From IMG/VR virus record IMGVR_UViG_2778261505_000002: a stretch of DNA of 64,000 bases; one strand, 5' to 3'. The position numbers were made by a program, and so were the translations under genes. The stretch comes from a virus (taxonomy: Duplodnaviria > Heunggongvirae > Uroviricota > Caudoviricetes). This document shows positions 4,961 through 56,042 of this stretch, piece by piece; the stretch's first letter is position 1; every line of letters begins with the position of its first letter. The notes below the pieces were generated by a model. That model saw only the letters and a list, made by a program, of their open reading frames with translations, did no database searches and was not told the DNA's origin.

Positions 4961-6142
4961 ATGAGCCTTTATGTTATATCAACATTTAGGTTGGTCACAA
5001 TATTGCCTGTTAAAAGTGGAATTATCGTGAGCGAGCTGAAAGAGCTAATTACCGAATTAGATTTTGAACAATGGTTGGATACTGAAGGTATCGTTTATCG
5101 ACGTGGAGGCGTGAGTGCTCGCGGTCGTGAAGTGAATATCAAGGAGTGTCCGGTATGCGGCAGCTCCAACTGGAAGGTATATTTCAATCTGACCAGTGGC
5201 GTCGGTAAATGCTTCGCTGGTGATCATCCCGAAGAGATTCAGTTCAATAAGCTGGTCTTCCTCAAGCACTACAGCGGCAAATCACGACGACAGTTCGAGG
5301 AATATGTGCAGAACGCCCTTCTTTCCCAGGGGTGGGCACCAAAGAAAGAAGAGCTAGTGCTTGCAAGCACAGTCGAGTTAGAGGGGCCAGTTGCACTCCC
5401 TCGTCATTACGAGCTTCCTATAGATGGTCGTCTTCCAGACTATCTGGTTGAACGAAACATATCGCCTGAAATGGCAAAGTATTTTGACCTACGATACTGC
5501 GTCGAAGGCAAGCACGCCTATGTAGATCCGTATACAGATCAGGTTAAAGGACAGATATTCGATATGCGAATACTGATACCGGTTTACGATCTGGATGGGG
5601 TAATGAAGACATTTCAGGGACGAGACATTACCGGTACAGCAGAACGCCGCTACCTCTTTCCTATGCAGCTTCCAGCTTCAGGTAAATTTCTCTACAACGG
5701 CCATAATGCAGTCGGCAAACAGACTGTAGTTGTCTGTGAGGGTGCGTTCGATGTTATGGGGGTCAAACGAGCTATTTTCGACGAAGAAACATTACGTGAT
5801 TACGTGGAGCCAATAGGAACGTTCGGGATGCATCTATCTGGCAACACCACTCAGGATGCAGAAGATCAGTTGGGCGCGTTCCTGACGCTCAAGGCGCGTG
5901 GATTACGTAATGTGATCATGATGTGGGATAGTGAAAAGCAAGCTATACGCAACACGATGGCCGCAGCCAGGCGACTGACCAGTATTGGTCTTAATGTCAA
6001 AGTGGCGTGTTTGGGCGAGGAAGGACTCGACCCGGGCGATGCAACGCCAGAGCAAATCATCAAAGCCTATTATCGGGCAAAACCGTATACCAAGCAGTTG
6101 GAGTTGCAAAGCAAGGTTTTGGGCATTAAGGCTCTATCATAA
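4961..6142 (+). CDS. DNA primase (zinc-ribbon plus TOPRIM, DnaG-like)
   Basis: CPVCGSSNW zinc-ribbon and VVVCEGAFDVMG TOPRIM motif; start placed at ATG 4961 with AAAAGAAAAACACATG context (track ORF begins at 4889). Confidence 0.75.
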   Translation: MSLYVISTFRLVTILPVKSGIIVSELKELITELDFEQWLDTEGIVYRRGGVSARGREVNIKECPVCGSSNWKVYFNLTSGVGKCFAGDHPEEIQFNKLVFLKHYSGKSRRQFEEYVQNALLSQGWAPKKEELVLASTVELEGPVALPRHYELPIDGRLPDYLVERNISPEMAKYFDLRYCVEGKHAYVDPYTDQVKGQIFDMRILIPVYDLDGVMKTFQGRDITGTAERRYLFPMQLPASGKFLYNGHNAVGKQTVVVCEGAFDVMGVKRAIFDEETLRDYVEPIGTFGMHLSGNTTQDAEDQLGAFLTLKARGLRNVIMMWDSEKQAIRNTMAAARRLTSIGLNVKVACLGEEGLDPGDATPEQIIKAYYRAKPYTKQLELQSKVLGIKALS

Positions 6143-6217
6143 CAATCACCTTCAAAATAAGTAGATGATTACTTATCTTTCTGTGAGAATACTTTCATCT
6201 GTTAGCTAGGAGTTGGT

Positions 6218-7000
6218 ATGAAAGACGAAATTCAGAAATTAGCCTGCGACATCATTGATAAAACTGGTTTAGAAATCAGCGAGAGCAATCGGCTAGACAT
6301 CATTGAAAAAGCCGTAAAAACAGCAATGGATCATATCGCCACTCGTTTGGTCGAGATCCCGCTACCGGGGCTACCTTATCTGAAGGTTAAGTTACACGTA
6401 TGGGGTGAACCTTCTTGTGCACGGCGTTCTGCATTAGTTGTTTTTATTAGCAAAGAAAACCCGATCAGTCTTAAAGTGCAGGTTGGGGCATGGATGGATG
6501 GCAAAGTGATCTACACAAATACCGTTTTTTGTGCGTCAAATGACAGTATTATTGAAGAGGCTATTCAAGAATCACTTCTAACTATGCATAGCTTATTTTT
6601 GCTGGAAGACAAGCAAAACTACGAAGAGTACTTACGGTCGATAAAAGGTGAGAGAACATTGTCACTTAAAGCCGATTTCGTTACCCCGACAAACCTGTTG
6701 GAAGTCTTGCTTAATAAAGGGGCTAATGATGCCGTAAATGTAATCAGAGAGAGTGAGTATGCGTCTCTTTGCGACATGTGCAAAAGCCAGTTGGATCTGG
6801 TGCATATCGTTATTGATGCTGGGAAGGCATGTGATGGCGTAATGGCGGAGTTTGCTGGGAAGATGGTCAGGATTGCTAACGAATTACCGATGATAGAGCA
6901 AGAGGCTAAATCATACGCCACCAATCATGTCACAGAGCTTCTTGTCCCCTATCGCTTAGAAAGCGATCAGCGCAAGATGATTAGCTGGGGAAGTTGGTAA
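6218..7000 (+). CDS. Hypothetical protein
   Basis: 260-aa ORF, AGGAG RBS before ATG; no recognisable motif. Confidence 0.5.
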   Translation: MKDEIQKLACDIIDKTGLEISESNRLDIIEKAVKTAMDHIATRLVEIPLPGLPYLKVKLHVWGEPSCARRSALVVFISKENPISLKVQVGAWMDGKVIYTNTVFCASNDSIIEEAIQESLLTMHSLFLLEDKQNYEEYLRSIKGERTLSLKADFVTPTNLLEVLLNKGANDAVNVIRESEYASLCDMCKSQLDLVHIVIDAGKACDGVMAEFAGKMVRIANELPMIEQEAKSYATNHVTELLVPYRLESDQRKMISWGSW

Positions 7001-7055
7001 GCTCTCAGTGTGTCGTTTTTTACGCAAATAATGATAGGTAAGCACAAGATTATTT

Positions 7056-7538
7056 TTGGCGGTAATTGTGAAAGCTGATTTGTCAAAAATCCCCTCTATT
7101 TCAGGAAATAATGGTTATTCACTTCGTTGTGAGGAAGTAAAGATAAACGGTGAGTCGGCATATTGCAGCTACTCCGTTTGCCAGCACACCATTCTTGCCT
7201 TCAAAGAAAACCGTCTTCCTCGAACTTCATTCCAGTCGTGCGCAACCGCTATCAAAGCAGGCAAATGCAAGGCGTTAAAAATGATGGTTGAAGAGATTCG
7301 TAAAGGAGAATCTCTGTATTTCGAAGATATGACCGCGCTCATTAAGGAGGTTGAAGAACGGAATAAACAAGCCAGAACTTTAAAACGAAAACGTGACAGT
7401 GTAACGATTAATAGCATGGTTAAGAAGAGCGCCACATCACAAACAGCGATCACTGACGTGTATGCGGCGTTGCTTGAAGAAACAACAAAAGAAACACATG
7501 AGCAAATCGATCAACATATGGAGGTAAAACAACAATGA
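7056..7538 (+). CDS. Hypothetical Cys-rich protein (start uncertain)
   Basis: Track ORF starts at TTG; several Cys residues; true start may be an internal GTG/ATG. Confidence 0.35.
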   Translation: MAVIVKADLSKIPSISGNNGYSLRCEEVKINGESAYCSYSVCQHTILAFKENRLPRTSFQSCATAIKAGKCKALKMMVEEIRKGESLYFEDMTALIKEVEERNKQARTLKRKRDSVTINSMVKKSATSQTAITDVYAALLEETTKETHEQIDQHMEVKQQ

Positions 7539-8857
7539 AAAAGTTGATCGCACTTAAGCATAAGCTGGACGAAATGAAAGTTATGGGCACCAATGCAAAA
7601 AAAGAGGCATTGGCCAACATGGATGACTTTGAACAAAGCATGGTTTCATTGATGCTCAACCCTTTCATCCGTTTTGGGGTAAAGAAATACAAAGTGGCAG
7701 AGCCGCTTAGTGAGTCCATCCCAAGTGACGAAAAAGCCATTGATGTACTGAATAAGCTGGCCTCTCGCGAGCTAACGGGGAACGCAGCAATAGCAGCTGT
7801 TGAGTCTATCGTGGCGTCAATGTGCGCCGATGGGCAGGACGTGTTCCGTCGTTTCCTCTTAAAAGACCCGAAAGCTGGCGTTGGGATTAGCCTATGCAAC
7901 AAGGTTTTTGAAAATCCCATTCCGAAATTCGAGGTGCAGCTGGCGTCACCGTATAAAGAAAAAGGCGACAAATACCCCTTCAAGCCAAATCCTAAAGCAA
8001 AATGGCCGATGATTGGCAGTCTTAAGCTCGATGGTTTGCGAGTAATTTGCGAGGTTATTGTTGACGAGGAAGAGGTTAACTTCCTTTCTCGTACTGGTAA
8101 TCCAATCACGTCTCTCGATCACCTAAAGCCAGCCATGCTCGAATTAGGCAAACTTTCAGGCCACAAACACATCTTCTTCGATGGTGAAGGAACTGCCGGT
8201 TCATTTAACCAGTCCGTATCTGCATTGCGCAAAAAGAACGTGCAGGCAATTGGCGCTATTTATCATGTTTTCGACTTCTTCCTACCGGAATGGCGAGCAC
8301 AGGCTAAATCCAAAGAGTATGCAAAGACAGGTATGAAGCTGAAAGAGCGCCTGGCTATGCTGGTGGCGTTGTTCAAAAACGATCGCAGTGAAGGCTACAC
8401 ACAAGACATTCACCTGCATCCGTTCTATATCATCCATAGCCACGAAGACTTCATCGAACGCTTCATGAAACGCCTGGACGATAACGAAGAAGGGGAGATG
8501 GGCAAAGATCCGAACTCTGTTTACGAGTTTAAACGTACCCGCAGCTGGTGGAAGTTAAAAGACGAAGATTCAGAAGATGGTGAAATTATCGACTTTGAGC
8601 CGGGCGACCCGGACTCTGGTTTTGCCAACACACTTGGAAAAATTGTTATTCGTCTTGAAAACGGCGTCATCGTTCGTGCGAGCGGCATTAAGCATAAATA
8701 TCTGGATGAGATCTGGAACAACAAAGAGAAGTACCGTGGTCGTATTGTCGAGGTTCATTGTCACGAGAAAACACCGGACGGCAGCTTACGCCACCCACGA
8801 CTGAAATGGCCGCGTTGCTTACGCGATACAGAAGATCGAATCGGAGATAAAGAATGA
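7535..8857 (+). CDS. ATP-dependent DNA ligase
   Basis: 440 aa; adenylation motif I GSLKLDGLR (KxDG), FFDGEG, and C-terminal LRHPRL OB-fold signature. Confidence 0.8.
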   Translation: MKKLIALKHKLDEMKVMGTNAKKEALANMDDFEQSMVSLMLNPFIRFGVKKYKVAEPLSESIPSDEKAIDVLNKLASRELTGNAAIAAVESIVASMCADGQDVFRRFLLKDPKAGVGISLCNKVFENPIPKFEVQLASPYKEKGDKYPFKPNPKAKWPMIGSLKLDGLRVICEVIVDEEEVNFLSRTGNPITSLDHLKPAMLELGKLSGHKHIFFDGEGTAGSFNQSVSALRKKNVQAIGAIYHVFDFFLPEWRAQAKSKEYAKTGMKLKERLAMLVALFKNDRSEGYTQDIHLHPFYIIHSHEDFIERFMKRLDDNEEGEMGKDPNSVYEFKRTRSWWKLKDEDSEDGEIIDFEPGDPDSGFANTLGKIVIRLENGVIVRASGIKHKYLDEIWNNKEKYRGRIVEVHCHEKTPDGSLRHPRLKWPRCLRDTEDRIGDKE

Positions 8858-9033
8858 TGCTCGGCTGGATGATTGCATTTTTAGCAGTTGGTTTTTTCAT
8901 AGGTATTGTGGTGATGTCCAGTTGCATCAATGACTACATTAAAAGCGGTGTTATAGAAAGACGCGGTCGTATTTATCGCATTGTAGAAATAACCAACACC
9001 CTGAAGGAGATTAAGGATGATCGTATTAAGTAA
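8854..9033 (+). CDS. Small membrane protein (59 aa, not in ORF track)
   Basis: ATG overlaps ligase stop (ATGA); MMLGWMIAFLAVGFFIGIVVM hydrophobic helix. Confidence 0.35.
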   Translation: MMLGWMIAFLAVGFFIGIVVMSSCINDYIKSGVIERRGRIYRIVEITNTLKEIKDDRIK

Positions 9034-9232
9034 ACGGGAGAAGGAAACGCTTCATGAAATCAGTAAGTGGCCGGAGTTCCCTGAGTACTGGAAGCCTAAA
9101 ACGCGAGCTAAGTTAGAGCGTTTAGGGTTGGTTGCAAACGTTTCTGAAACGTGGTGTTCGGCCAACTACCAGTTAACTGATAAAGGGAAAGTATTGCTAC
9201 AGCAATTAGTAGAATCAGGAGCGTTAAAATGA
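9017..9232 (+). CDS. Hypothetical protein
   Basis: 71-aa ORF with AAGGAG RBS 7 nt upstream. Confidence 0.4.
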   Translation: MIVLSKREKETLHEISKWPEFPEYWKPKTRAKLERLGLVANVSETWCSANYQLTDKGKVLLQQLVESGALK

Positions 9233-9381
9233 TTCCATACATCTCATTAGCTTTTATGGGTGGCTTCCTTATCGGCTTCGGCATCTGTCGTGATTTAATT
9301 AAGCAGGAACTTAAAACCAAAACACTGTGCATCGGAAAGCGTGTGTATCGGGTAGTTCATGAAACAAAGGTGAAAATATGA
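9229..9381 (+). CDS. Small membrane protein (50 aa, not in ORF track)
   Basis: ATGA overlap with previous stop; MIPYISLAFMGGFLIGFGI helix; its first 16 nt recur at 10240 and 11892. Confidence 0.35.
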   Translation: MIPYISLAFMGGFLIGFGICRDLIKQELKTKTLCIGKRVYRVVHETKVKI

Positions 9382-9668
9382 GCAATTTAACTTCTTGGGA
9401 ATGGTGGTTGGCCACCTATTTCTTAGCGGCCGGAGTCGCATTCGCCTTTTACGTAGGTCAGTTAGTCGTAAAACTGTTGCTGATTAAATTTGCTAGTCAT
9501 AAACGTATCGATGATGGTCTGTGGCGTCTTGGCACCCTGGTGGAAACTCGCTACGGGCAACTTAAGGAGAACGAAACCATTACTATCCAAGCGAAACGAT
9601 TCACTGCCACCATTACAAGAACACCTAGTCGTAGAGTGGCCTTGATCAAAAAAGTCACAACCGAATAA
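9378..9668 (+). CDS. Hypothetical membrane protein
   Basis: 96 aa; N-terminal hydrophobic segment; start overlaps previous stop. Confidence 0.4.
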   Translation: MSNLTSWEWWLATYFLAAGVAFAFYVGQLVVKLLLIKFASHKRIDDGLWRLGTLVETRYGQLKENETITIQAKRFTATITRTPSRRVALIKKVTTE

Positions 9669-32565: not shown

Positions 32566-32668
32566 AACCGCTGACAGCATACTTGATTTGCCGCTGACAG
32601 AATACCAAAAACAGTTGGCAGCATACGGTGAACCGCTGACAGACTATCAATTACCGCTGACAGCATAC
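32566..32668. repeat. Origin-side iterons (5 copies) upstream of repA
   Basis: Same CCGCTGACAGCATAC repeat family, five copies within ~100 bp immediately 5' of repA. Confidence 0.75.
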
Positions 32669-32708
32669 ATGAACATGACTTCAGACCAGTCGTGGCGCGG
32701 CTTACAGC

Positions 32709-32781
32709 GATCGGGGATCTTATTTGATCTATATAAGGATCTATCTATGGATCTCTTTATTAGGATCTATCCTGTGGATAT
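32709..32781. other. Candidate replication origin: GATC cluster plus DnaA-box-like site
   Basis: Six GATC sites within 59 bp (32709-32767) and TGTGGATAT at 32773-32781 (8/9 to DnaA box), adjacent to origin-side iterons. Confidence 0.5.
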
Positions 32782-32867
32782 GTGAATAATTAAAACAGGC
32801 ATTTACTACCTTCGGCGCACCTGGTGGGTTATCGTTGCCTCGGCTAACAATCACAGAAAAATGACAT

Positions 32868-33512
32868 ATGGATCTAAAACGCACGCGCTGGGTTCGTCGT
32901 CTTGAAGACGGCTCCTACACTATCGAATCAAATTCCAACCTGAATAAGCAGAAGTTGCTTTGTGACATCTGCGGTATAGCGGCGAAGTGCCCGATCTACG
33001 AAACCAGAATTAAACTTGATAAGGCTGGTGTGAATTTTCATTTAAACAGTTGCATCAGGTACGTTCCATTACTCGCATTTCGTAAACCGATCATCGGATT
33101 GGATGCCCCCTACTTCAACACACTCCGTTCAGGTGTGACGTGGCGAGATCGTTTATCACCAGACAAGCTGATTTGCCTCGTATCCGCAGACACAGGGAAA
33201 ATCATCCGTTTTGGGAAAGTAGACAAGGTTTACTCAGGCCCAGTAGACGAAATGTTGCGGAAACACAGCCGGTTTAATCATCTCTGTATGGGTGGTGAGA
33301 AAATCGAGAAGGTAGAAGAAGTGATCCGCAAATCCTACGGACACTTTCTGACCAAAGATAGCCTGCTCACCGCAATCTACATCAGACATGTAAAACGTGA
33401 GTTCGACCTCGAATACCACAGCGAAGAAGAGCTTAACCTTGTTGACCCACGTCCAAAAGCTGGCGTCATAAGCATAAACGCAGCGCGTAAAAAGCCCACT
33501 GACGCGCTGTAA
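32868..33512 (+). CDS. Hypothetical protein
   Basis: 214-aa ORF; Cys pairs near N-terminus (CDICGIAAKCP). Confidence 0.45.
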   Translation: MDLKRTRWVRRLEDGSYTIESNSNLNKQKLLCDICGIAAKCPIYETRIKLDKAGVNFHLNSCIRYVPLLAFRKPIIGLDAPYFNTLRSGVTWRDRLSPDKLICLVSADTGKIIRFGKVDKVYSGPVDEMLRKHSRFNHLCMGGEKIEKVEEVIRKSYGHFLTKDSLLTAIYIRHVKREFDLEYHSEEELNLVDPRPKAGVISINAARKKPTDAL

Positions 33513-46908: not shown

Positions 46909-47718
46909 ATGAGTTCGGTTGAAAATGTAATGACAAATGATGATCTGGACGAGCTGACAGCCATGTTGCAATCACTTGATGAACCAGTAAAAAAAGCTGC
47001 ACAGGTTGAAAATACTGATGATATTGACGATCTGCTGCTCGGCCTAGATGCTGGCGTAGCCATGAGTTCTGATGATGTTGCCGAAGAACTGTTCAATGAA
47101 GAAAAAGCAGGTGATTTCAGCTCTGCTTTAAATGAGTTGGAGTTAGCGCATGAGCCTATAAACGTAATTAACGCTGAAAGTGTTGAAGCTGCCGAAAACG
47201 AGCCAGAACAATTGGGATTTATTGAGGTTGAAGAGTGTGTTGAGGTTAATGATGAATTAAAAGTTCAACAGTCAAATGATAGCAATACAAATAAAAAAGC
47301 TCGTACTGCAAGAGGTCCTCGTTTTACTTTAAGTGATAAAGATGATTCGTTTTTCAATAAAGCGGGCTTAGAAAAAGATATTTTCTTAGACGCTTACGAT
47401 AACGCGCCTGTCAAAGCAAAGGATAAGATATTAAACCTTCTTAATTGGTTTAGCGGAGGTCCAGATATTAGTGTTTACACGGTAATTTCCATGAGACACC
47501 TTCTCACAGAAAAGAAGGCTACAAGTAATAGTATTAAGATTGCTTTAATGAGCAATCCAGAAAAACCGTATCCGCTTAATACTGCGTCAACTCAGGCTGG
47601 GCAAATGATGGCTGTATTTCCAGCGACAGGAATTGCCGTTAGAGACGGTGGAAATCTAACATTGAACGAAGAATCACCGATCGTTAAGAAGTTTGTCGCG
47701 GAGTACACTATTGGATGA
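46909..47718 (+). CDS. Hypothetical protein with strongly acidic N-terminal half
   Basis: 269 aa; first ~110 residues are D/E-rich. Confidence 0.45.
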   Translation: MSSVENVMTNDDLDELTAMLQSLDEPVKKAAQVENTDDIDDLLLGLDAGVAMSSDDVAEELFNEEKAGDFSSALNELELAHEPINVINAESVEAAENEPEQLGFIEVEECVEVNDELKVQQSNDSNTNKKARTARGPRFTLSDKDDSFFNKAGLEKDIFLDAYDNAPVKAKDKILNLLNWFSGGPDISVYTVISMRHLLTEKKATSNSIKIALMSNPEKPYPLNTASTQAGQMMAVFPATGIAVRDGGNLTLNEESPIVKKFVAEYTIG

Positions 47719-47901
47719 CGTTCCCCTACTTAAAATAAAGCCCATAGAGAGCTTTATAGTACTGGGTAAGCCAATCACATACCCAGCACCACAAAAACGC
47801 GCTAGAGAGCTTCTCGTTTGCATTTCTGGCGCGTTTTATTTGATTGCCAGACATAAAATCAAATGCAAAAATAGGTATATACTTACCTATCGAGAAAGAA
47901 G

Positions 47902-48495
47902 ATGATTGCAGCCGAAAAAATCAAACAGCGAAAGCGCGACAACTCTCTTCGTGACCTCTGGAGAACACCTGACTGGCTGTTTTCTGCCATTCAACGTTAT
48001 CTTGGAGTGACATTTGATGTTGACGTTGCCTGCAACAAGGACAATGCAAAGCTGCCTAATTTCATAGGCGTTGAGCGTGATGCTTTGAAATCTGAATGGG
48101 GACAGCCAGGTACAATTGCCTTCCTCAATCCACCCTACTCCAAAATCTACCCCTGGATTGATGCGGCTATACGTGAGCAGGCTCGCGGAGTTACAACAGT
48201 GATGCTAATTCCTCAATCCCTAGATACAAAGTGGTATGAGCGTGCAACAGAGTGTGCGAATGAGACGATTATTCTGTCTGGTGGCCGCGTAGCGTTTGTC
48301 GAGCCTGACGTAAATCTGGGGCAGGTAGAAGTAAACATCAACCCAGGTGGCAGTATGCTCGTTGTTTTTCGAGGATTCTGTCAGGACGCTGGGCACTCTA
48401 TAAGCAAGATCCCTTTGGACGTCATGAAAAGTCTGGGAGGGTATGATCCTGCGAATGTGATCAGGAAAAAAAGACCATCAAAGAAGGCTGCTTAG
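47902..48495 (+). CDS. DNA N6-adenine methyltransferase (phage Dam-like, orphan)
   Basis: 197 aa; WRTPDWLF N-terminal motif and catalytic NPPYS; no adjacent restriction endonuclease gene. Confidence 0.75.
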   Translation: MIAAEKIKQRKRDNSLRDLWRTPDWLFSAIQRYLGVTFDVDVACNKDNAKLPNFIGVERDALKSEWGQPGTIAFLNPPYSKIYPWIDAAIREQARGVTTVMLIPQSLDTKWYERATECANETIILSGGRVAFVEPDVNLGQVEVNINPGGSMLVVFRGFCQDAGHSISKIPLDVMKSLGGYDPANVIRKKRPSKKAA

Positions 48496-48527
48496 TTTGT
48501 TCTGGCGTCTGTAATTAGCCTGCTTCT

Positions 48528-48584
48528 GTATATATAAATAACTACATATTAATTATTAATATACGGAAGAAGGCTGTTTTGTAT
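48528..48584. repeat. Long hairpin element, copy 2 (homolog of 2584..2638)
   Basis: GCCTGCTTCTGTATATAT ... ATATACGGAAGAAGGC imperfect inverted repeat around an AT-rich loop; followed by GTTTTG. Confidence 0.6.
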
Positions 48585-48656
48585 CAGAGACTCCAGACCT
48601 GAACATCACTACAGAATCCACTAGAACCCCTTCCCAGACGCTTTAAAATCGATTTT

Positions 48657-48911
48657 ATGAACCACTTTAAGGAAACCAACATGTCATACCCGACTAATGT
48701 CGTTGCGCTCGTAGAGAGCGATTTTCTGGCCCAGGCTCGTGAAATGATGAAAGATCGTGAGCAGGCTTTCAACTTGTACGAATGGGCAATTAAGTGCTTG
48801 CATCTTGGCGAGCATCGCGAACTTGTTGAACAGCTTTTAGGTGAGTTGATCAATGAGGTGTTTGCCTTGAATGTTCAACTACATGGTAGAGAAAATAATC
48901 AATCACAATGA
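48657..48911 (+). CDS. Hypothetical protein
   Basis: 84-aa ORF; no recognisable motif. Confidence 0.4.
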   Translation: MNHFKETNMSYPTNVVALVESDFLAQAREMMKDREQAFNLYEWAIKCLHLGEHRELVEQLLGELINEVFALNVQLHGRENNQSQ

Positions 48912-49494
48912 TAGATAAGTACAAACTATTCATAAAGTGAATTGTAAGTGCTAAGATCTGATAGTTTCCAGTCGTAGACTGGAGACTCGACCTGATGGGT
49001 GGGGGTAAGCGTCACTGGCGTCAGGTTTAAAAAAAGCTCACTACCAGCGTAGAACTGGTGCCGTTTAGGTGTCGGGGAAGGGGGAACCAAAGTGAGCAGA
49101 GACAAGGGTCACTTTATGATTGTCGAGTCTGGGGTGTTTCGAGAGGTTGAATCCAGTACTCCCCTTCATAAAGTGTGGGAAGATCTCGGTTCTGGGGTGC
49201 TGTCATCCATAACTTCCCAAGTCTAAGCTGGCAGTAGACTTAGACCATAACTTTTCAGGTTATGAAACGACCAGGTTGGTGAGAGATTTTTATACTCACC
49301 TCCCTGGGAGAGTATTACCTGAAAAGACAACCTCTCACTTCGTTCGAGGTGAACTTCACTCACTTCGTTCGTTCAGTTCAGGTTTATAAAAACCTGTTCT
49401 GGGAAGTAATTTGTTTATTTTAATAATTATTAACACGCACGCGTGTGCGCACGCGCGAGGAAAAATCGGCGCGGCGCTTGATTCAGGAGTTTAT

Positions 49495-50085
49495 ATGACG
49501 ACGAAGACACCAGCCCGATCGCAAGCAAAAACTCGCAAAAAAGCCAAAAACAAAAATTCCCCCCGCACCAATCCCACAACGCCTGTCGTAGAGTTCAATC
49601 CCCAGCTTAAAACCGTGAAAATCTTTAGTGATGGCTCTTGCCTTAAAAATCCGGGTGGCCCGGGCGGTTACGGTATCGTTCTCCAGTATCGTGGTGAGGA
49701 ACGCGAGTTCTCAGATGGTTTTCATAGCACCACCAATAACCGCATGGAGATGATGGGGGCACTTATCGGGCTGGAGCGTTTGAAATATCCATGCAACGTT
49801 ATTTTGCACTCTGATAGCCAGTATCTGAAAAACGGCATGACACAGTGGATGAAATGGTGGAAACGCAATGGATGGATGACTTCTGACAAAAAACCAGTAA
49901 AGAATGTTGATCTGTGGAAGCGTCTGGATGAGGCCGCAAGTCGACATAATGTTCGCTGGAAGTGGGTTAAAGGTCACGCCGGGCATCGTGAAAATGAAAT
50001 ATGTGATCGACTCGCGAAGATCGCAGCTTTTTCAGCAGCAGATATGCCTCACAAGAAAGATATTGGTTTTGTTTATAATAAATAG
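49495..50085 (+). CDS. Ribonuclease HI with basic N-terminal extension
   Basis: Start at ATG 49495 after CAGGAG (track ORF begins 49411 inside a GC-rich palindromic tract); RNase H core IFSDGSC...[28 protein letters not shown]. Confidence 0.8.
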
Positions 50086-50522
50086 TAAGTAAGTGTTTAC
50101 CTATCATTTTAAATCATGTATCTTATCGGCGTCAGGATGACAATGTGTCGGTAAGACACAGTTCCAGGATGGAACGAGAAAGGCGGCTGGCAATCGCCAG
50201 CCGCAACTCTTTCTGACACTGGATGGAGTCCACATGGCACGTCAAACCTATTTCACTTCTGTAACTAAACGTCCTCGTTCTTTACGTCAAATTTTGGCCG
50301 AATTATTTAGCGGTCGGGTTATGTCACGCCTTGATGAACTAGAGACTACCGTTCGGTTGCTGAATGAACGTTTAGATAATCAAGCGTCAGTTGTTGCGAA
50401 CGTGGGGGCGATTGTTGCCTCTGGTTCTTCACGCGAAGCGAAAAATGCACGGCCTTTAGTGAAGGAGAAAAACAACAAGGACAGTTCGAATGGAAAATTT
50501 TCAAAGAAAGAGGCTGAAACCA

Positions 50523-50741
50523 ATGGCCTACGTTCTCATTATAGTTTCACTGGCGACGGTAGCCGTTCCAGCCGGTCAGAGCCTTTTGATGCCGGATTCA
50601 TCCATCACCACACCTTCGTCGACGACAATTACCACCACTCCAGTGGAGCGTCCTGTCACTCTGGATGGGATGGCGGTGGATGCGATACCTCAAGTTCATC
50701 CAGTTACTCAGGATCATGCTGTGACTAAGGCGGTTGTATGA
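50523..50741 (+). CDS. Small secreted/membrane protein with Thr/Pro-rich tail
   Basis: 72 aa from ATG 50523 after AGAGG; signal-like MAYVLIIVSLATVAVPA; overlaps alternative-frame ORF 50234..50728. Confidence 0.4.
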   Translation: MAYVLIIVSLATVAVPAGQSLLMPDSSITTPSSTTITTTPVERPVTLDGMAVDAIPQVHPVTQDHAVTKAVV

Positions 50742-50926
50742 ACTGGTTTTCAAATCACTTTGGAAAAATTTGGCTGGCAATTCTTGCCCTTATGGCCGCC
50801 GGTTGGGTATCGAACATTATAAAACTTGTTTGCTCTGGCGATCTCCAGTTTCAGGCTGGCATGACCTTGGCTCGTGTAGTTGGGATTTTTGTTTTTCCAG
50901 TTGGTTCGGTACTTGGTTATTTCTGA
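50738..50926 (+). CDS. Small membrane protein
   Basis: 62 aa; ATGA overlap with previous stop; two hydrophobic segments. Confidence 0.4.
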   Translation: MNWFSNHFGKIWLAILALMAAGWVSNIIKLVCSGDLQFQAGMTLARVVGIFVFPVGSVLGYF

Positions 50927-51019
50927 CGGCTGTTAGTGCATATGCATTGACCATCTCTGCGTAAGCTATTTATGTAATTAGAAAACAACTTGTTTTGACA
51001 AATAATAAAAGGAAAGCAC

Positions 51020-51445
51020 ATGTTAGGTTTCTTCAAAAAGAAAACTCGTAAAGCTGTTATCGAAGTCAAAAAAATGGAGAACCGTGATGCGGTTGAGGCC
51101 ACCGTGTGGGGCGCGTACATGATCTCCTATGCTGACGGCACATGTGACGCAAAAGAAATTGCCATTCTTGAGAAGACAATTGCAGCTCTGCCTGCGTTTT
51201 CTCCGTTTGCTGGTGAAATTGCCCAAATGAGCGCCAATATCCGTGCTCGTTACGAAGCGTCCCCTCGTTCTGCTAATGCACAGGCTATTCGTGAGCTGTC
51301 TGATATTGCGGGTACTCCAGAGGCGGTCGATGTTCTGTGTCTGTGCCTTGATATTGCCGATCAGGACGGCATTGGTGAACAAGAAGAGCAGGCACTGAAA
51401 AAGATCGCCCAGGCGCTTCAGTTGTCACTGGATGCTTATCTCTAA
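51020..51445 (+). CDS. TerB-like domain protein
   Basis: 141 aa; paired acidic helices (YADGTCDAKEIAILEK ... DIADQDGIGEQEEQALKKIAQAL) resembling the TerB fold. Confidence 0.5.
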   Translation: MLGFFKKKTRKAVIEVKKMENRDAVEATVWGAYMISYADGTCDAKEIAILEKTIAALPAFSPFAGEIAQMSANIRARYEASPRSANAQAIRELSDIAGTPEAVDVLCLCLDIADQDGIGEQEEQALKKIAQALQLSLDAYL

Positions 51446-51603
51446 TGCTTGAGAGATTCCGGCTTGTGATCGTCATTGCTCTTCTGGTGATGGCGGTGTT
51501 GGTGGATTTTACGGGAAAGATGATGTCTGTCATTTCTGATGGCGTCCTCATTGGTTTGGCGATCTACTTCGCTTATCCGTTAGTTCGTAAAGCAAAGTGT
51601 TAA
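51445..51603 (+). CDS. Small membrane protein (52 aa, not in ORF track)
   Basis: ATG overlaps TerB-like stop (TAATG); two hydrophobic helices; followed by strong terminator. Confidence 0.4.
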   Translation: MLERFRLVIVIALLVMAVLVDFTGKMMSVISDGVLIGLAIYFAYPLVRKAKC

Positions 51604-51604
51604 T

Positions 51605-51637
51605 GACAAGGGCCAAATGGCCCTTGTGTTTCGTTGA
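51605..51637 (+). terminator. Rho-independent terminator
   Basis: GACAAGGGCC-AAAT-GGCCCTTGTG followed by TTTCGTT. Confidence 0.7.
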
Positions 51638-51742
51638 CCGAAATAGAGAGTTTGCACCTTTACGTTTAGCTTGCTCCCCTTTTATGCCACATCACAATAA
51701 AGCCAATAAGAAAACAACTTGTTTAAGTATTAGGAAAAACAC

Positions 51743-52309
51743 ATGTGCAAGAAATGCAGAGCGATAGCTGATGAACAAAACGCCTTATTCGAAGAAATGG
51801 ATGCTAATGAACTGGTCAAAATGTTAGCCATTCTTCGAGGAATAGAAGACGTTTCCATATTTGAGAGACTGTTTACAATACTTAATTTTAATTCCACCTT
51901 TGAAGAGCCAACTCAGATTGTAGCTTTGGCACACCATTTCGGTGTTCATTACCTTGCTGAAAAAGAGAGAGCTGATAAGTTGCAAGCGACTTTGGATATG
52001 GTGAGCGAGACTCCAGGACCTCATGACGGTAACAAAAGTGAGACGATTATTGCCAGCAAAGATCGTGAAATTGCCGGGCTTAAATCCTCTCTAACGATGT
52101 TGATGTCTGCAATTAACCTTATGTCTTCTAAAGCAGGTTCTAAAATGCCATCACTAAACAGCGACGATCCGATGGCCGTTCGCCAGCTTTTAGGTGCAAT
52201 GGCCGACCAGCTCGACGACACAAAGAGTCGCCTTGAAGACATGATGCGGGAGCTCACGCATCGCCATGACTTGAATAAGCAGCCGCACAAAACGCAATAC
52301 GCACTCTAA
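51743..52309 (+). CDS. Hypothetical coiled-coil protein
   Basis: 188-aa ORF with GGAAAAACACATG start context. Confidence 0.5.
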   Translation: MCKKCRAIADEQNALFEEMDANELVKMLAILRGIEDVSIFERLFTILNFNSTFEEPTQIVALAHHFGVHYLAEKERADKLQATLDMVSETPGPHDGNKSETIIASKDREIAGLKSSLTMLMSAINLMSSKAGSKMPSLNSDDPMAVRQLLGAMADQLDDTKSRLEDMMRELTHRHDLNKQPHKTQYAL

Positions 52310-52326
52310 TACAGCACCAGTCGACA

Positions 52327-52348
52327 GGGGGCGACAGCCCCCATTTTT
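52327..52348 (+). terminator. Rho-independent terminator
   Basis: GGGGGC-GACA-GCCCCC followed by ATTTTT. Confidence 0.65.
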
Positions 52349-52450
52349 ACGCCTTAAATCTGCTGTAACGCCTATGAATGCAGCTTTTATGCCTTTTCAA
52401 GTTTGCGATAATTACACCAATCAGAAAACAAATTATTTAATGGTGTAATT

Positions 52451-54136
52451 ATGAATACAGCCCTTTCCATCATCGACGATGCCAGCTCAAACACGGCTAT
52501 CGACTATCGTCAGGAAATGAATGTCATCCACGAAATCGTGGCCGAGTGCGAGAAAGAGATCGCCTTCATGTATCAGGTTCACGACTTCGTTTATGGAGAC
52601 GAACGCCACAACATGATTAATCGCCTGCTGAGACTAAACCATCGACCAGATGAAGATCGCTCGCGTTTAAATCGAGGTTGGTTGGATAAAGTCGATCTGG
52701 AATGGGTGAAACAGAATATTTGGGCCGAGTACTGGAGGAAGGTCACGGACATGACTAACGTTTTGCTGATCATGCCAGCTTCCCGTCGAGATGAGTGGCG
52801 CGAGCAGTTTATAGAGGGCAAACAGGAAGTCATCAAAACTGACAGAACCGGCTACCAGATGAAGGTTAAAGAGTTCGTTGGTGTACCGGAGTTCAAAGCA
52901 GAAACGGTCATACCCACGATGCTTAATTTGCTGAATGACAGGCACAAATATCTCTCTGAGCGCGTGTATGGCTTGTTTAAGGCGCTGAGTCCTGCGCACA
53001 AGACAAATAAGACAAACGGTTTCAGCGAGCGTCTGATAATCGCTGACTGCATTTCTGATTTCTGGCGGGACAGCGTTAGCGTGAACTATCGCAAAGAGGA
53101 CTACATCGACGATCTGCGTGTCTTGCTTCATTTCTTCGCGCACAAAGAATTTATTACCATCAACCGCACTGCTGAGGTGCTATCAGCTGCGTATCGAGCA
53201 AACGACTGCCAGACCGGTGACTGGATGAACGTCGATGGAAATCTGATGCGCGTGAAGATGTTCAAGAACGGCAACGTTCACTTTGAAATACATCCTGACG
53301 TGGCCTGGAAGTTGAATGAGGTGCTGGCTTACAGTATGCCTGCTGCAATCCCCGCGCCATGCCGAACTGCGCCAAAAACACGGGCACCAAAGCAGTTCGG
53401 GTTAATCCAGAAGACGATCTCCGTGCCGGTTCGCACTGCGCTTCGTGACGGGCGATTGAGCAAAGACAAAGGCGTATGGTACTTCTCTGATTCAGCTCTC
53501 CAGAAGTCGCAGGTGGAAGAGCTTGAGCGCACACTGAGCTTCATTGGCGGCGTGCAGGAGAAAAAGCACTGGCAGTTCCCGTATGACATCGGCCATACGC
53601 TAAATACGATTGTGGCTACCGGTTTAATACCGGATACAAAATCACACCAGTTCTACCCTACCCCACGCTTGATTGCTGAGTACGTTGCCAGAGCCACTGA
53701 ATTGAAGCCTGGTGAGAAGCTGCTGGAGCCTCAAGCCGGACGTGGGGATCTTCTGGCCTATATTAACGCCGATCTGGAAGATGTTACCTGCATAGAAATC
53801 GCACCTCTCTTCGCTGATATCCTGCGTGGAAAAGGGTATACGAACACGATTTGCTGCGACTTCATAAAGTGGTCTGAGGACAACGCAGGTTATCAGTTCG
53901 ACAAAATCGTTATGAACCCGCCGTACTCGCTTGGTCGTCATAGAGAGCACACGCTGGCTGCGCTGGGGCATCTGAAAGTCGGCGGGCGTCTTGTAGCAGT
54001 ATTGCCGGGCACTGCGCCAATACTGGACTGGATGACGATGGATAATTACGTTTATGCCAGAGGGAAGTCGTTTACCAACGAGTTTGAAGACACAGGGATC
54101 ACAGTCAGCGTATACGTTTTCAAACGCGTTAAATGA
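52451..54136 (+). CDS. Putative N6-adenine DNA methyltransferase with large N-terminal domain of unknown function
   Basis: 561 aa; C-terminal ~180 aa carry FYPTPR, SAM-binding-like LEPQAGRGDLL and catalytic NPPYS (gamma-class order); N-terminal ~380 aa unassigned. Confidence 0.6.
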   Translation: MNTALSIIDDASSNTAIDYRQEMNVIHEIVAECEKEIAFMYQVHDFVYGDERHNMINRLLRLNHRPDEDRSRLNRGWLDKVDLEWVKQNIWAEYWRKVTDMTNVLLIMPASRRDEWREQFIEGKQEVIKTDRTGYQMKVKEFVGVPEFKAETVIPTMLNLLNDRHKYLSERVYGLFKALSPAHKTNKTNGFSERLIIADCISDFWRDSVSVNYRKEDYIDDLRVLLHFFAHKEFITINRTAEVLSAAYRANDCQTGDWMNVDGNLMRVKMFKNGNVHFEIHPDVAWKLNEVLAYSMPAAIPAPCRTAPKTRAPKQFGLIQKTISVPVRTALRDGRLSKDKGVWYFSDSALQKSQVEELERTLSFIGGVQEKKHWQFPYDIGHTLNTIVATGLIPDTKSHQFYPTPRLIAEYVARATELKPGEKLLEPQAGRGDLLAYINADLEDVTCIEIAPLFADILRGKGYTNTICCDFIKWSEDNAGYQFDKIVMNPPYSLGRHREHTLAALGHLKVGGRLVAVLPGTAPILDWMTMDNYVYARGKSFTNEFEDTGITVSVYVFKRVK

Positions 54137-54196
54137 TAGGTAAATACTTACTTAGTTTATGTAAGAATGTAGTAACTAAACGATAAGAGAAAACAC

Positions 54197-54901
54197 ATGA
54201 GCAACCTCCAGTTAGAGCATTTTAACGTCACAGGCCATTCCGATTTTCCTTTCAAGTTTACATTGAAAGGTTATGCAGAGGATGCGGTAGGCCAGATCAT
54301 TATTGATAAAGGCATCGTTAAGTTTGAGGGGAATTTTGATGAATCCGCGAAAACATTCATAGACTTCGTTGCCAAACGTTGGAGCGAGCAATGGAAAGAC
54401 CTGGAAAAGCGCGCTAGTGAGTTTGATCGGTTCATGGATGCAATGGATACAGCAAAAGAGGCTCTTGCTGCCGGTACTCCGTTAGATCTGGAGTCACTTT
54501 TCAACGGCGAAGTGGCCTCTGCGATGTTCGCCACCATGTTCGCGGGTGAGTTCGTCCGCAGCGGTGCCAAAAACTACCTTGAGCTGGATTACAACGTCCC
54601 TGCAATTGGCGACTTCGTCGTTACCATCCAACGCAAAGAAGGTAAGACGCCAGGTGAACGCGTCGCAGAGCTTGAGGCCGTTGTGGATCAGCGTAACGGA
54701 GAGTGTGACCGTTTGATCAACGAGCTTCATGCACTTCGGGAAGAAAGAATATGTGCGGGTAGCAATACACGTAATGCAGCGGATATCTACTTCCAGTTAG
54801 TTGAGGAATGCCAGATTCCACCAGGTGGCTCTCTTGTCGATTACGTCAGACATTTAATGGCGGAAGTTAACTCCAGCCATAAAGATGGTGAGGTGCGCTG
54901 A
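54197..54901 (+). CDS. Hypothetical protein
   Basis: 234-aa ORF with GAGAAAACACATG start context. Confidence 0.45.
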   Translation: MSNLQLEHFNVTGHSDFPFKFTLKGYAEDAVGQIIIDKGIVKFEGNFDESAKTFIDFVAKRWSEQWKDLEKRASEFDRFMDAMDTAKEALAAGTPLDLESLFNGEVASAMFATMFAGEFVRSGAKNYLELDYNVPAIGDFVVTIQRKEGKTPGERVAELEAVVDQRNGECDRLINELHALREERICAGSNTRNAADIYFQLVEECQIPPGGSLVDYVRHLMAEVNSSHKDGEVR

Positions 54902-55281
54902 TGTTTGGCATTGACGCACAGCGTATAGCCGCTTTTGCAAAAAGCCCTCTTGATAATCCCTTGTCTCGTAGTGAGCAAATGGAGCTGGCAAGGCTTTTTC
55001 TTCACATTCAAAAACAGGCAGACATTTTCAATAACATGCCTAATCAACCTATTCTGGATGGTCACATCCAGATGGTCATTAACAGTCATGAGAAAGGCTG
55101 GGCTGCAATCGTCCCCTGCACAATTACATACAAGTTGGCGAAAGAGGTTCAAGAGTTTCGAAAAGCCAGTGTCGAATCGGAGTCTACCAAAGCCGCAATA
55201 AACACTCTTATTCGCATGGGGTTCACATGGACCGGTGGAGCCTACTGGCAAGCACCTCACCCCATTTTATCCGGCAATTAG
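54901..55281 (+). CDS. Hypothetical protein
   Basis: 126-aa ORF, start overlaps previous stop. Confidence 0.4.
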   Translation: MFGIDAQRIAAFAKSPLDNPLSRSEQMELARLFLHIQKQADIFNNMPNQPILDGHIQMVINSHEKGWAAIVPCTITYKLAKEVQEFRKASVESESTKAAINTLIRMGFTWTGGAYWQAPHPILSGN

Positions 55282-55400: not shown

Positions 55401-56042
55401 ATGTCTAGTATTTCCGAAGCTCATATGTTCGCCGCTGGCGCTCATGGTGGCGTTGGTCAGAAAAGAAAATATACCGGCGAAGACTACATCAACCACCCGG
55501 TTGCTGTCCGAGAGATTGTTGCATTGCATGACGGAACCGTGGAGATGCAAATCGCGGCGCTTCTGCATGATGTGGTCGAAGACACCCATGTAACCATAGA
55601 GATGGTTCGTGATCACTTCGGTGAGCGCGTAGCTGAAATGGTTCAGGCTCTGACCAACATTGCAAGGCCAGAAGACGGCAATCGAATACAGCGTTTCATC
55701 ATCAATGTCCGGGAGCTGGAGCAAAATCTCGACATGCAGACGCGCATGATCAAGCTGGCTGACCTGCTCGACAATACCTCTTCTATCGTGAGTCGCGATC
55801 CCGAGTTTTCAGCTATCTACCTTGCAGAGAAAGAGCTGATGCTGGACGTACTTTTTAACGGGAAGGAGATTGGTGCCAACGCTGATGTTGTCGAGTACAT
55901 GGAGAGGATAGGTATAGAACACCCGTTGCTATTAAGCGCAATGGCGAAAGTCACTGAAGGTATTGCGCTTCTGAAACCGGAACACATCAAACGTTATGAA
56001 AAACACAAATCGCTGATCTGGAGCGCGTGGGAGGCTGCATGA
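55401..56042 (+). CDS. HD-domain (p)ppGpp hydrolase-like protein (small alarmone hydrolase candidate)
   Basis: 213 aa; HPVAVREIV...AALLHDVVEDT matches the RelA/SpoT hydrolase HD motif; no synthetase domain. Confidence 0.65.
   Translation: MSSISEAHMFAAGAHGGVGQKRKYTGEDYINHPVAVREIVALHDGTVEMQIAALLHDVVEDTHVTIEMVRDHFGERVAEMVQALTNIARPEDGNRIQRFIINVRELEQNLDMQTRMIKLADLLDNTSSIVSRDPEFSAIYLAEKELMLDVLFNGKEIGANADVVEYMERIGIEHPLLLSAMAKVTEGIALLKPEHIKRYEKHKSLIWSAWEAA

Follow-up and report, generated by a model that had tools for sequence, protein, structure and literature searches.

Two putative solitary N6-adenine methyltransferases of an SSU5/pHCM2-type phage-plasmid, one of them fused to a conserved DUF4942 domain

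Why does a phage-plasmid carry two adenine methyltransferase genes with no restriction gene beside either of them, and what does the long N-terminal part of one of these enzymes contribute? The questions are raised by a 64,000-nucleotide stretch of caudoviricete DNA (IMG/VR record IMGVR_UViG_2778261505_000002; the whole stretch is called the window hereafter), in which open reading frames (ORFs) for proteins of 197 and 561 amino acids (aa) lie within 8 kb of each other. Across the 8 kb around both genes, identity is 99.5% with the E. coli plasmid NZ_CP023851.1, 97.5% with Escherichia phage Cyrano and about 83% with Salmonella phage SSU5. The window encodes a Rep3-family initiator, DNA polymerase III alpha, ribonucleotide reductase, DHFR, RNase H and Ead/Ea22-like proteins, and a complete complement of tail, capsid and terminase genes is present in the 110-kb relative NZ_CP023851.1. 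On the strength of these identities, replication genes and virion genes, the window is identified by sequence as an SSU5/pHCM2-type phage-plasmid of E. coli. Both methyltransferase genes reside in a long co-directional cluster of DNA-metabolism and early genes, and both are retained in SSU5 and in Klebsiella relatives. We propose that the two genes probably encode independent, solitary N6-adenine DNA methyltransferases dependent on S-adenosylmethionine, which are core genes of the phage-plasmid and serve mainly in self-methylation against restriction.

The shorter protein is the simpler case. The initial annotation, made from the letters of the window alone, had described it as a compact Dam-like enzyme, and the profiles of the T1-Dam-type family bear this description out. 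The protein scores 131.6 bits (E 2.9e-38; cut-off 28.1) against the Pfam family PF05869 'Dam' and 113.2 bits (cut-off 97.05) against the NCBIfam equivalog TIGR01712 'phage N-6-adenine-methyltransferase', and it further matches PHROG 111 'DNA methyltransferase' (E 8e-65) and the 'orphan methyltransferase' models of PADLOC. Its exact sequence is already public on at least 1000 contigs, annotated as 'phage N-6-adenine-methyltransferase', while a sequence search of the Protein Data Bank (PDB) gave no match. Identity amounts to 32% with Dam of the T1-like phage Tls and to 35% with the methyltransferase from the nin region of an Stx1 phage; all three proteins contain DLWxTP, D-x-D-x-A-A and NPPYS elements, and D41, A43 and N48 are invariant in their alignment. 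The product of M.EcoT1Dam is G6mATC, and M.Btr190III, which is 35% identical to T1 Dam, modifies GATC with substantial off-target activity (PMC4996451). Given these data and the 32% identity to a T1-like Dam, it is reasonable to expect that the 197-aa enzyme modifies GATC, possibly with relaxed specificity. Membership of the non-specific Hia5/Hin1523 family was considered and rejected, as those enzymes are Dam-related proteins of about 280 aa with FxGxG and DPPY motifs. Taken alone, the shorter gene encodes a routine phage Dam-type enzyme.

The 561-aa protein had been recognised as a methyltransferase from three motifs in its C-terminal part, FYPTPR, LEPQAGRGD and NPPYS, and all three were located where the initial annotation had placed them (Table 1). 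Its exact sequence is also public, on 199 contigs, in a 1384-member cluster labelled 'DUF4942 domain-containing protein'; it matches PHROG 6263 'DNA methyltransferase' at E 1e-299, and a 93%-identical relative from S. Typhi bears the name YdiA. In the AlphaFold2 model (mean pLDDT 81.8), the C-terminal part is modelled with confidence as a complete Rossmann-type amino-methyltransferase domain carrying motifs X, I and IV (NPPY) in the order of the gamma class. The protein ends with the Rossmann sheet itself (strands 533-542 and 551-559), and thus lacks the C-terminal recognition domain of gamma-class enzymes. Among 72 diverse homologues, residues Q400, E426, G430, D470, N489, P491 and H500 are invariant. 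A search of the PDB with the 561-aa sequence returned only weak matches to the catalytic domain, and in the search of PDB sequences with the family profile of the 72 homologues M.TaqI ranked best (E 2.3e-6), followed by rRNA adenine methyltransferases. The catalytic fold superposes on M.TaqI, M.BseCI and CamA over 150-160 residues at 2.2-2.3 Å.

These comparisons also bear on the substrate. The 561-aa protein might modify RNA (m6A or m2G in rRNA or tRNA) or, like HemK, a glutamine in a protein, for example to reprogram host translation, and the fold scores of rRNA m6A methyltransferases are indeed as high as those of DNA enzymes. We nevertheless consider an RNA or protein substrate quite unlikely: M.TaqI is the best profile match; the identities in the structural alignments are highest with DNA enzymes (CamA 27%, M.TaqI 25%); PADLOC models of DNA methyltransferases match the catalytic domain at E values from 1e-15 ('mad2') to 2e-10 (type II methyltransferases); the gene recurs on mobile elements in the company of further DNA methyltransferase genes; and HQFYPTPR resembles the G-Q-(F/Y)-(F/Y)-T-P-R motif of HsdM-type DNA enzymes. 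The Pfam family RrnaAD (PF00398, KsgA/Erm) scored 15 bits against a cut-off of 24, and the NCBIfam matches to KsgA and Erm fell far under their cut-offs. The best reading is that DNA is the probable substrate.

The same type of catalytic domain occurs in phage genes annotated as 'DNA methylase' and within giant phage proteins of 2,200-3,900 aa. With positions 53618-54133 of the window as query, the giant proteins were found in Pseudomonas, Vibrio and Aeromonas phages, some of them annotated as virion structural or PLxRFG-domain proteins, and PHROGs 15406, 11358, 10691 and 5143 likewise contain this type of domain. The giant proteins may resemble injected anti-restriction proteins such as DarB of P1.

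Upstream of the catalytic domain, the initial annotation had assigned a 380-aa N-terminal domain of unknown function. The region is somewhat longer, at about 395 aa, and is in part annotated: residues 140-295 match DUF4942 (PF13708) at E 1.7e-20 with 74 bits, far above the gathering threshold of 25. The protein displays the architecture of the DUF4942 fusion family, whose members are about 510-580 aa long and carry the domain ahead of a class I methyltransferase domain; DUF4942 was present in all 72 of the sampled homologues. Among solved structures, the conserved N-terminal domain has no relative.

Conservation is distributed very unevenly along these 395 residues. In the alignment of the 72 homologues, column entropy is lower at residues 161-200 and 261-300 than anywhere else in the protein, the surroundings of the NPPY motif included, and W95, L179, S180, H183, T185, N186, W258, H277, N289 and L292 of the core are invariant; H281 is invariant only in an alignment of 26 sequences. 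By comparison, residues 1-80 display high column entropy, with 6-30% identity in distant homologues, entropy peaks at residues 321-360, and within the core a hairpin at residues 121-140 is variable and missing in about 70% of the members. Two natural chimeras (P0044 and P0045) further dissect the protein: their residues 81-310 are of the E. coli type, with 93-95% identity to the protein of the window, and their residues 311-561 are of the Klebsiella type, with about 50% identity to it, which indicates a recombination joint at the domain boundary, near residue 310. The earlier suggestion that the large N-terminal domain acts as a target-recognition module can therefore be kept only in part. Because of the conservation pattern and the chimera joint, the DUF4942 core does not look like a variable recognition module, and it would most likely provide a common scaffold with a part in DNA binding, in positioning or in contact with a partner. 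Better candidates for any preference in sequence are the N-terminal helices of residues 1-80 and the small alpha/beta domain in residues 311-394.

The conservation of the core leads to a different proposal for the 561-aa protein, in which the enzyme has relaxed specificity or is coupled to single strands or to replication, and DUF4942 tethers it to entering or replicating DNA or to a host replication factor instead of recognising a target; in function it would be akin to M.EcoGIX and M.BceJIII. We regard this as possible, though only tentatively so. It fits a core that is as conserved as the catalytic domain, unlike the usual recognition domains, and a catalytic domain that recurs inside giant phage proteins, some of them annotated as virion proteins. 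It also accords with a survey of plasmid leading regions, in which 'Uncharacterized; DUF4942; Methyltransferase' families 24 (n = 2171) and 76 (n = 551) were enriched, with a median ORF position of 1 from oriT on the transcribed strand, and in which leading-region orphan methyltransferases were proposed to protect against restriction (Samuel et al. 2024, Nature, Supplementary Table). M.EcoGIX is an orphan of leading regions that acts on single strands with the loose motif SAY (Fomenkov et al., NAR 2020), yet it is a beta-class DPPY enzyme with an unrelated motif order, which makes it a functional analogy only. Also against the tether stand the entry of phage-plasmid DNA in double-stranded form, the lack of an oriT, and the leading regions of F and R100, in which no DUF4942 gene was found. 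In its more general form, and held with the same reserve, the idea would make DUF4942 a structurally unprecedented module that reads no sequence and instead couples a minimal gamma-type catalytic domain either to DNA that is entering or replicating or to a conserved factor of host replication, and so yields a broad-range 'vaccinating' methyltransferase; or else the core would have a second catalytic activity, marked by its invariant Ser, His, Thr and Asn. If the coupling were true, it would be one solution common to phage-plasmids, lambdoid prophages, IncHI plasmids and the leading regions of conjugative plasmids.

The distribution of the family reaches well beyond phage-plasmids. An exhaustive search with residues 1-340 yielded 624 clusters at 50% identity, nearly all of 510-580 aa with the domain at the N terminus. 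With the 561-aa protein as query, tblastn matched 2,535 plasmid records, 1,360 of them conjugative; plasmids of IncHI size (180-380 kb) account for many of the matches and bear a full-length homologue at about 31% identity. In the S. Typhi IncHI1 plasmid NC_016825.1 (positions 6327-10608 of locus L014), the DUF4942-methyltransferase gene lies 1.8 kb from a Dam-family gene. In Variovorax and in an Enterobacterales genome, homologues belong to the early operons of lambdoid prophages and have N6_N4 and C5 methyltransferase genes as neighbours; further copies lie on a plasmid-like contig that also carries ParB, Dam and umuDC, and on an element that encodes a UvrD helicase and a primase. The neighbours of distant homologues thus vary from locus to locus, and no partner gene is conserved among them. 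The family, already catalogued but uncharacterised, is very abundant on the mobile elements of Enterobacterales. As a separate observation, the IncHI-type plasmids (the above locus and positions 5655-9638 of locus L007) place a DUF4942 homologue and a D12-class Dam-family gene 1-2 kb apart, a pairing that mirrors the Dam-like and DUF4942 pair of the phage-plasmid with an unrelated Dam.

Both genes had been described as lacking a cognate restriction gene, and this stands: none is annotated in the 110-kb relative that is 99.5% identical, and none is present among the flanking ORFs. PADLOC found no restriction-enzyme or defence match in the seven ORFs that flank the genes, no restriction gene was found beside distant homologues at the loci examined, and the adjacent endonuclease gene of a Type II restriction-modification system is missing among the genes with an assigned function. 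As far as annotation shows, both enzymes are solitary. That one or both serve as the modification component of a restriction or defence system not yet recognised, with its nuclease among the hypothetical neighbours, we hold to be very improbable. Many neighbouring ORFs have no known function, and the 'mad2' model matched by the catalytic domain belongs to a methylation-associated defence system, but the flanking ORFs gave no such match, the full element has no annotated nuclease, and the neighbours of distant homologues are not conserved.

Under the preferred reading of two solitary DNA methyltransferases, both enzymes would methylate adenines in the element's own DNA during replication, so that progeny or plasmid DNA, delivered by injection or by another route, would be protected in advance when it meets restriction systems of new hosts with overlapping targets. 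Several unrelated methyltransferases would widen the cover; similar stacking is seen on related mobile elements. In the 561-aa protein, the C-terminal Rossmann domain would perform the chemistry and the N-terminal 395 residues would engage the DNA, a division suggested by the lack of both a C-terminal recognition domain and a conserved partner gene.

Several points weigh against this reading. The Pfam model N6_Mtase (PF02384) scores 17.3 bits with the isolated C-terminal region of the 561-aa protein, under the gathering threshold of 20.4; it matches only 9 of the 72 homologues at E up to 0.01, while the rRNA-type Pfam model 'MTS' matches 54 of them. That the DUF4942 core is so strongly conserved, down to invariant His, Ser, Thr and Asn residues, could reflect a second enzymatic or a protein-binding activity rather than DNA binding, and the mentions of DUF4942 in the literature searched consist of annotation only. 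For the shorter enzyme, E. coli, Salmonella and Klebsiella possess a Dam of their own, and a GATC-specific enzyme would add no obvious protection; GATC is moreover not avoided in the window (274 sites observed, 318 expected). Since the C-terminal recognition domain is absent and N6_Mtase remains under its threshold, we do not file the 561-aa enzyme as canonical gamma-class, and we infer from sequence and model that it works like an N6-adenine methyltransferase of the M.TaqI type. The composition of the window gives no lead to a target: CTAG is strongly depleted (40 observed, 96 expected; ratio 0.42), and the other 4-bp palindromes, GATC included (0.86), deviate little and display no avoidance that would hint at one. 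Our literature search found no methylome study of SSU5/pHCM2 elements, and papers on PF05869 added no information.

The six GATC sites that the initial annotation had noticed at the replication origin are present, and they fall in a core resembling oriR of P1 and P7, beside the gene of the Rep3-family initiator. The sites lie at 32709, 32716, 32726, 32738, 32750 and 32764, all within 56 bp, and a seventh lies at 32871; at the mean density of the window, which has 274 sites in 64 kb, a stretch of 56 bp should contain about 0.24. The core matches oriR of P7 and P1 across the sites annotated there for Dam methylation and for DnaA, and the pairwise alignment gave a mean column identity of 80%. The layout of the iteron-like repeats is the same as that of the five RepA iterons annotated in incC/oriR of P7. 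The initiator is annotated in NZ_CP023851.1 as 'RepB family plasmid replication initiator protein'; since the iterons fall inside the first 33 or so codons of the longest ORF, the true start of repA probably lies further downstream. Initiator, about five iterons, an AT-rich core with clustered GATC and DnaA boxes follow one another in order, and the origin is by its sequence of the P1 type. A P1-like oriR core is thereby found in an otherwise SSU5-like element.

In P1, oriR requires Dam-methylated GATC, its hemimethylated form is bound by SeqA, and the enzyme that acts on it is the host Dam. A plasmid-borne enzyme is therefore not needed to explain the GATC sites. The initial annotation had suggested that one of the two enzymes may also regulate replication. 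As an added role, the Dam-like enzyme might still methylate the six sites and set the timing or competence of replication, through faster re-methylation, escape from SeqA or independence of the host Dam. This is consistent with a cluster embedded in a core that is 78-82% identical to P1/P7 oriR, where the equivalent sites are annotated as Dam sites, with the requirements of P1 oriR just described, and with the place of the 197-aa enzyme in the family of the GATC-specific T1 Dam. We judge it unlikely, since the host Dam that acts at P1 oriR is present in the hosts of this element family, the 197-aa gene lies 15 kb from the origin in a nucleotide-metabolism and early gene cluster, its putative GATC specificity depends on an identity of about 32%, and the 561-aa enzyme has no link to GATC. 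Under self-methylation against restriction, any effect of the methyltransferases on the GATC-rich origin would be secondary, because the host Dam already methylates these sites.

Table 1. Positions of the two methyltransferase genes, their domains and motifs, and the origin elements in the window (residue numbers refer to the respective protein)
Feature	Position	Strand	Remarks
T1-Dam-type phage N6-adenine DNA methyltransferase (putative), 197 aa	47902..48495	+	PF05869, TIGR01712, PHROG 111
Motifs of the 197-aa protein: DLWRTP aa 18-23; FDVDVAC aa 38-44; NPPYS aa 76-80	NPPYS: 48127-48141
DUF4942-methyltransferase fusion, 561 aa (putative YdiA-type solitary methyltransferase)	52451..54136	+	public cluster, PHROG 6263, AlphaFold2 model
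Variable helical segment, aa 1-80	52451..52690	+	helices 20-48 and 52-62 in model
Conserved DUF4942 core, aa 81-310	52691..53380	+
Variable linker and small alpha/beta domain, aa 311-394	53381..53632	+	abuts catalytic domain; candidate specificity-bearing part
Secondary structure within aa 311-394			model; helices (H) and strands (E): H325-332, E335-337, E342-344, H352-364, E368-370, E373-375, H381-390
Rossmann-fold amino-methyltransferase domain, aa 395-561	53633..54136	+	complete
Motif X, HQFYPTPR (FYPTPR aa 401-406)	53651-53668	+
Motif I, LEPQAGRGD, aa 425-433	53723-53749	+
Motif IV, NPPYS, aa 489-493	53915-53929	+
repA, Rep3/RepB-family initiator, longest ORF 404 aa	31452..32666	-	Pfam Rep3_N E 5e-9
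Five iteron-like repeats, CCGCTGACAG(C/A)ATAC	32567..32672	.	21-23 bp spacing; between origin core and repA
P1/P7 oriR-like origin core	32678..32800	.	78-82% DNA identity, E 3e-14 to 2e-17
Six GATC sites	32709-32767		set in GGATCT/oriC-13-mer-like AT-rich repeats, e.g. GATCTCTTTATTAG
Two DnaA-box-like sites	32773, 32781		one mismatch each; follow the GATC repeats

Several features of the surroundings were recorded in addition. Of the 711 plasmid records that match the 8-kb stretch, 697 are typed as non-mobilizable. In several near-identical plasmids (e.g. NZ_MW590712.1 and CP091407.1), an ISEcp1-blaCTX-M-15 insertion of about 3 kb lies inside this same stretch (window 47000-55000). Between the two methyltransferase genes, window positions 51020-51603 contain a TerB-domain ORF (141 aa; Pfam TerB, E 2e-7) with an overlapping ORF of 52 aa; in phage Cyrano the pair is labelled P1 TciA-like and TciB-like, a second P1-like feature of the element. 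Downstream, at 55401-56042 and among Ead/Ea22-like early genes, lies the gene of a 213-aa HD-domain protein (Pfam HD_4, E 1e-18), a domain that we take to be of the (p)ppGpp-hydrolase type. In Cyrano, two small genes that the window lacks (a 'putative outer membrane protein' and a hypothetical; positions 11369-12267 of the Cyrano locus, L001) sit between the upstream ORF and the DUF4942-methyltransferase gene, so that the corresponding spot, 52309-52451, appears to be a variable insertion point. In the same gap, a consensus scan gave a weak terminator-like GC-rich hairpin (52327..52342, + strand); around both genes, the promoter and terminator scans returned counts that were not above shuffled expectation.

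Clinical E. coli, Klebsiella and Salmonella commonly carry phage-plasmids of the SSU5/pHCM2 type, whose host range is set in part by escape from restriction. Orphan adenine methyltransferases on a phage-plasmid are of a well-known kind, and the point of interest is the DUF4942 family: its target motif and the role of its domain would fill a gap in the understanding of restriction evasion by plasmids and phages, and the motif would help in reading unexplained m6A signals in Enterobacterales methylomes.

Compared with known systems, the 197-aa protein conforms to the T1 Dam family in being solitary and phage-borne, in exceeding both curated cut-offs and in sharing the family motifs; it differs from Tls Dam in lacking the 48-residue N-terminal extension of the latter and in having a longer basic C-terminal tail. 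The origin resembles oriR of P1 and P7 in its GATC repeats, DnaA site, five iterons and adjacent initiator gene, with six clustered GATC sites where five are annotated in P7, and with a 404-aa Rep3/RepB ORF as initiator. The 561-aa protein shares its combination of Pfam domains with families 24 and 76 of Samuel et al. (2024), to which it is likened by domain annotation; in contrast to those leading-region families, its gene lies on a non-conjugative phage-plasmid with neither oriT nor leading region, within a phage early cluster. Homology to M.EcoGIX and M.BceJIII was considered and rejected, as these are beta-class DPPY enzymes, whereas the 561-aa protein combines a gamma-like motif order and NPPY with DUF4942. 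Like it, both are solitary and belong to mobile elements, where their proposed role is to shield incoming DNA from restriction (Fomenkov et al., NAR 2020).

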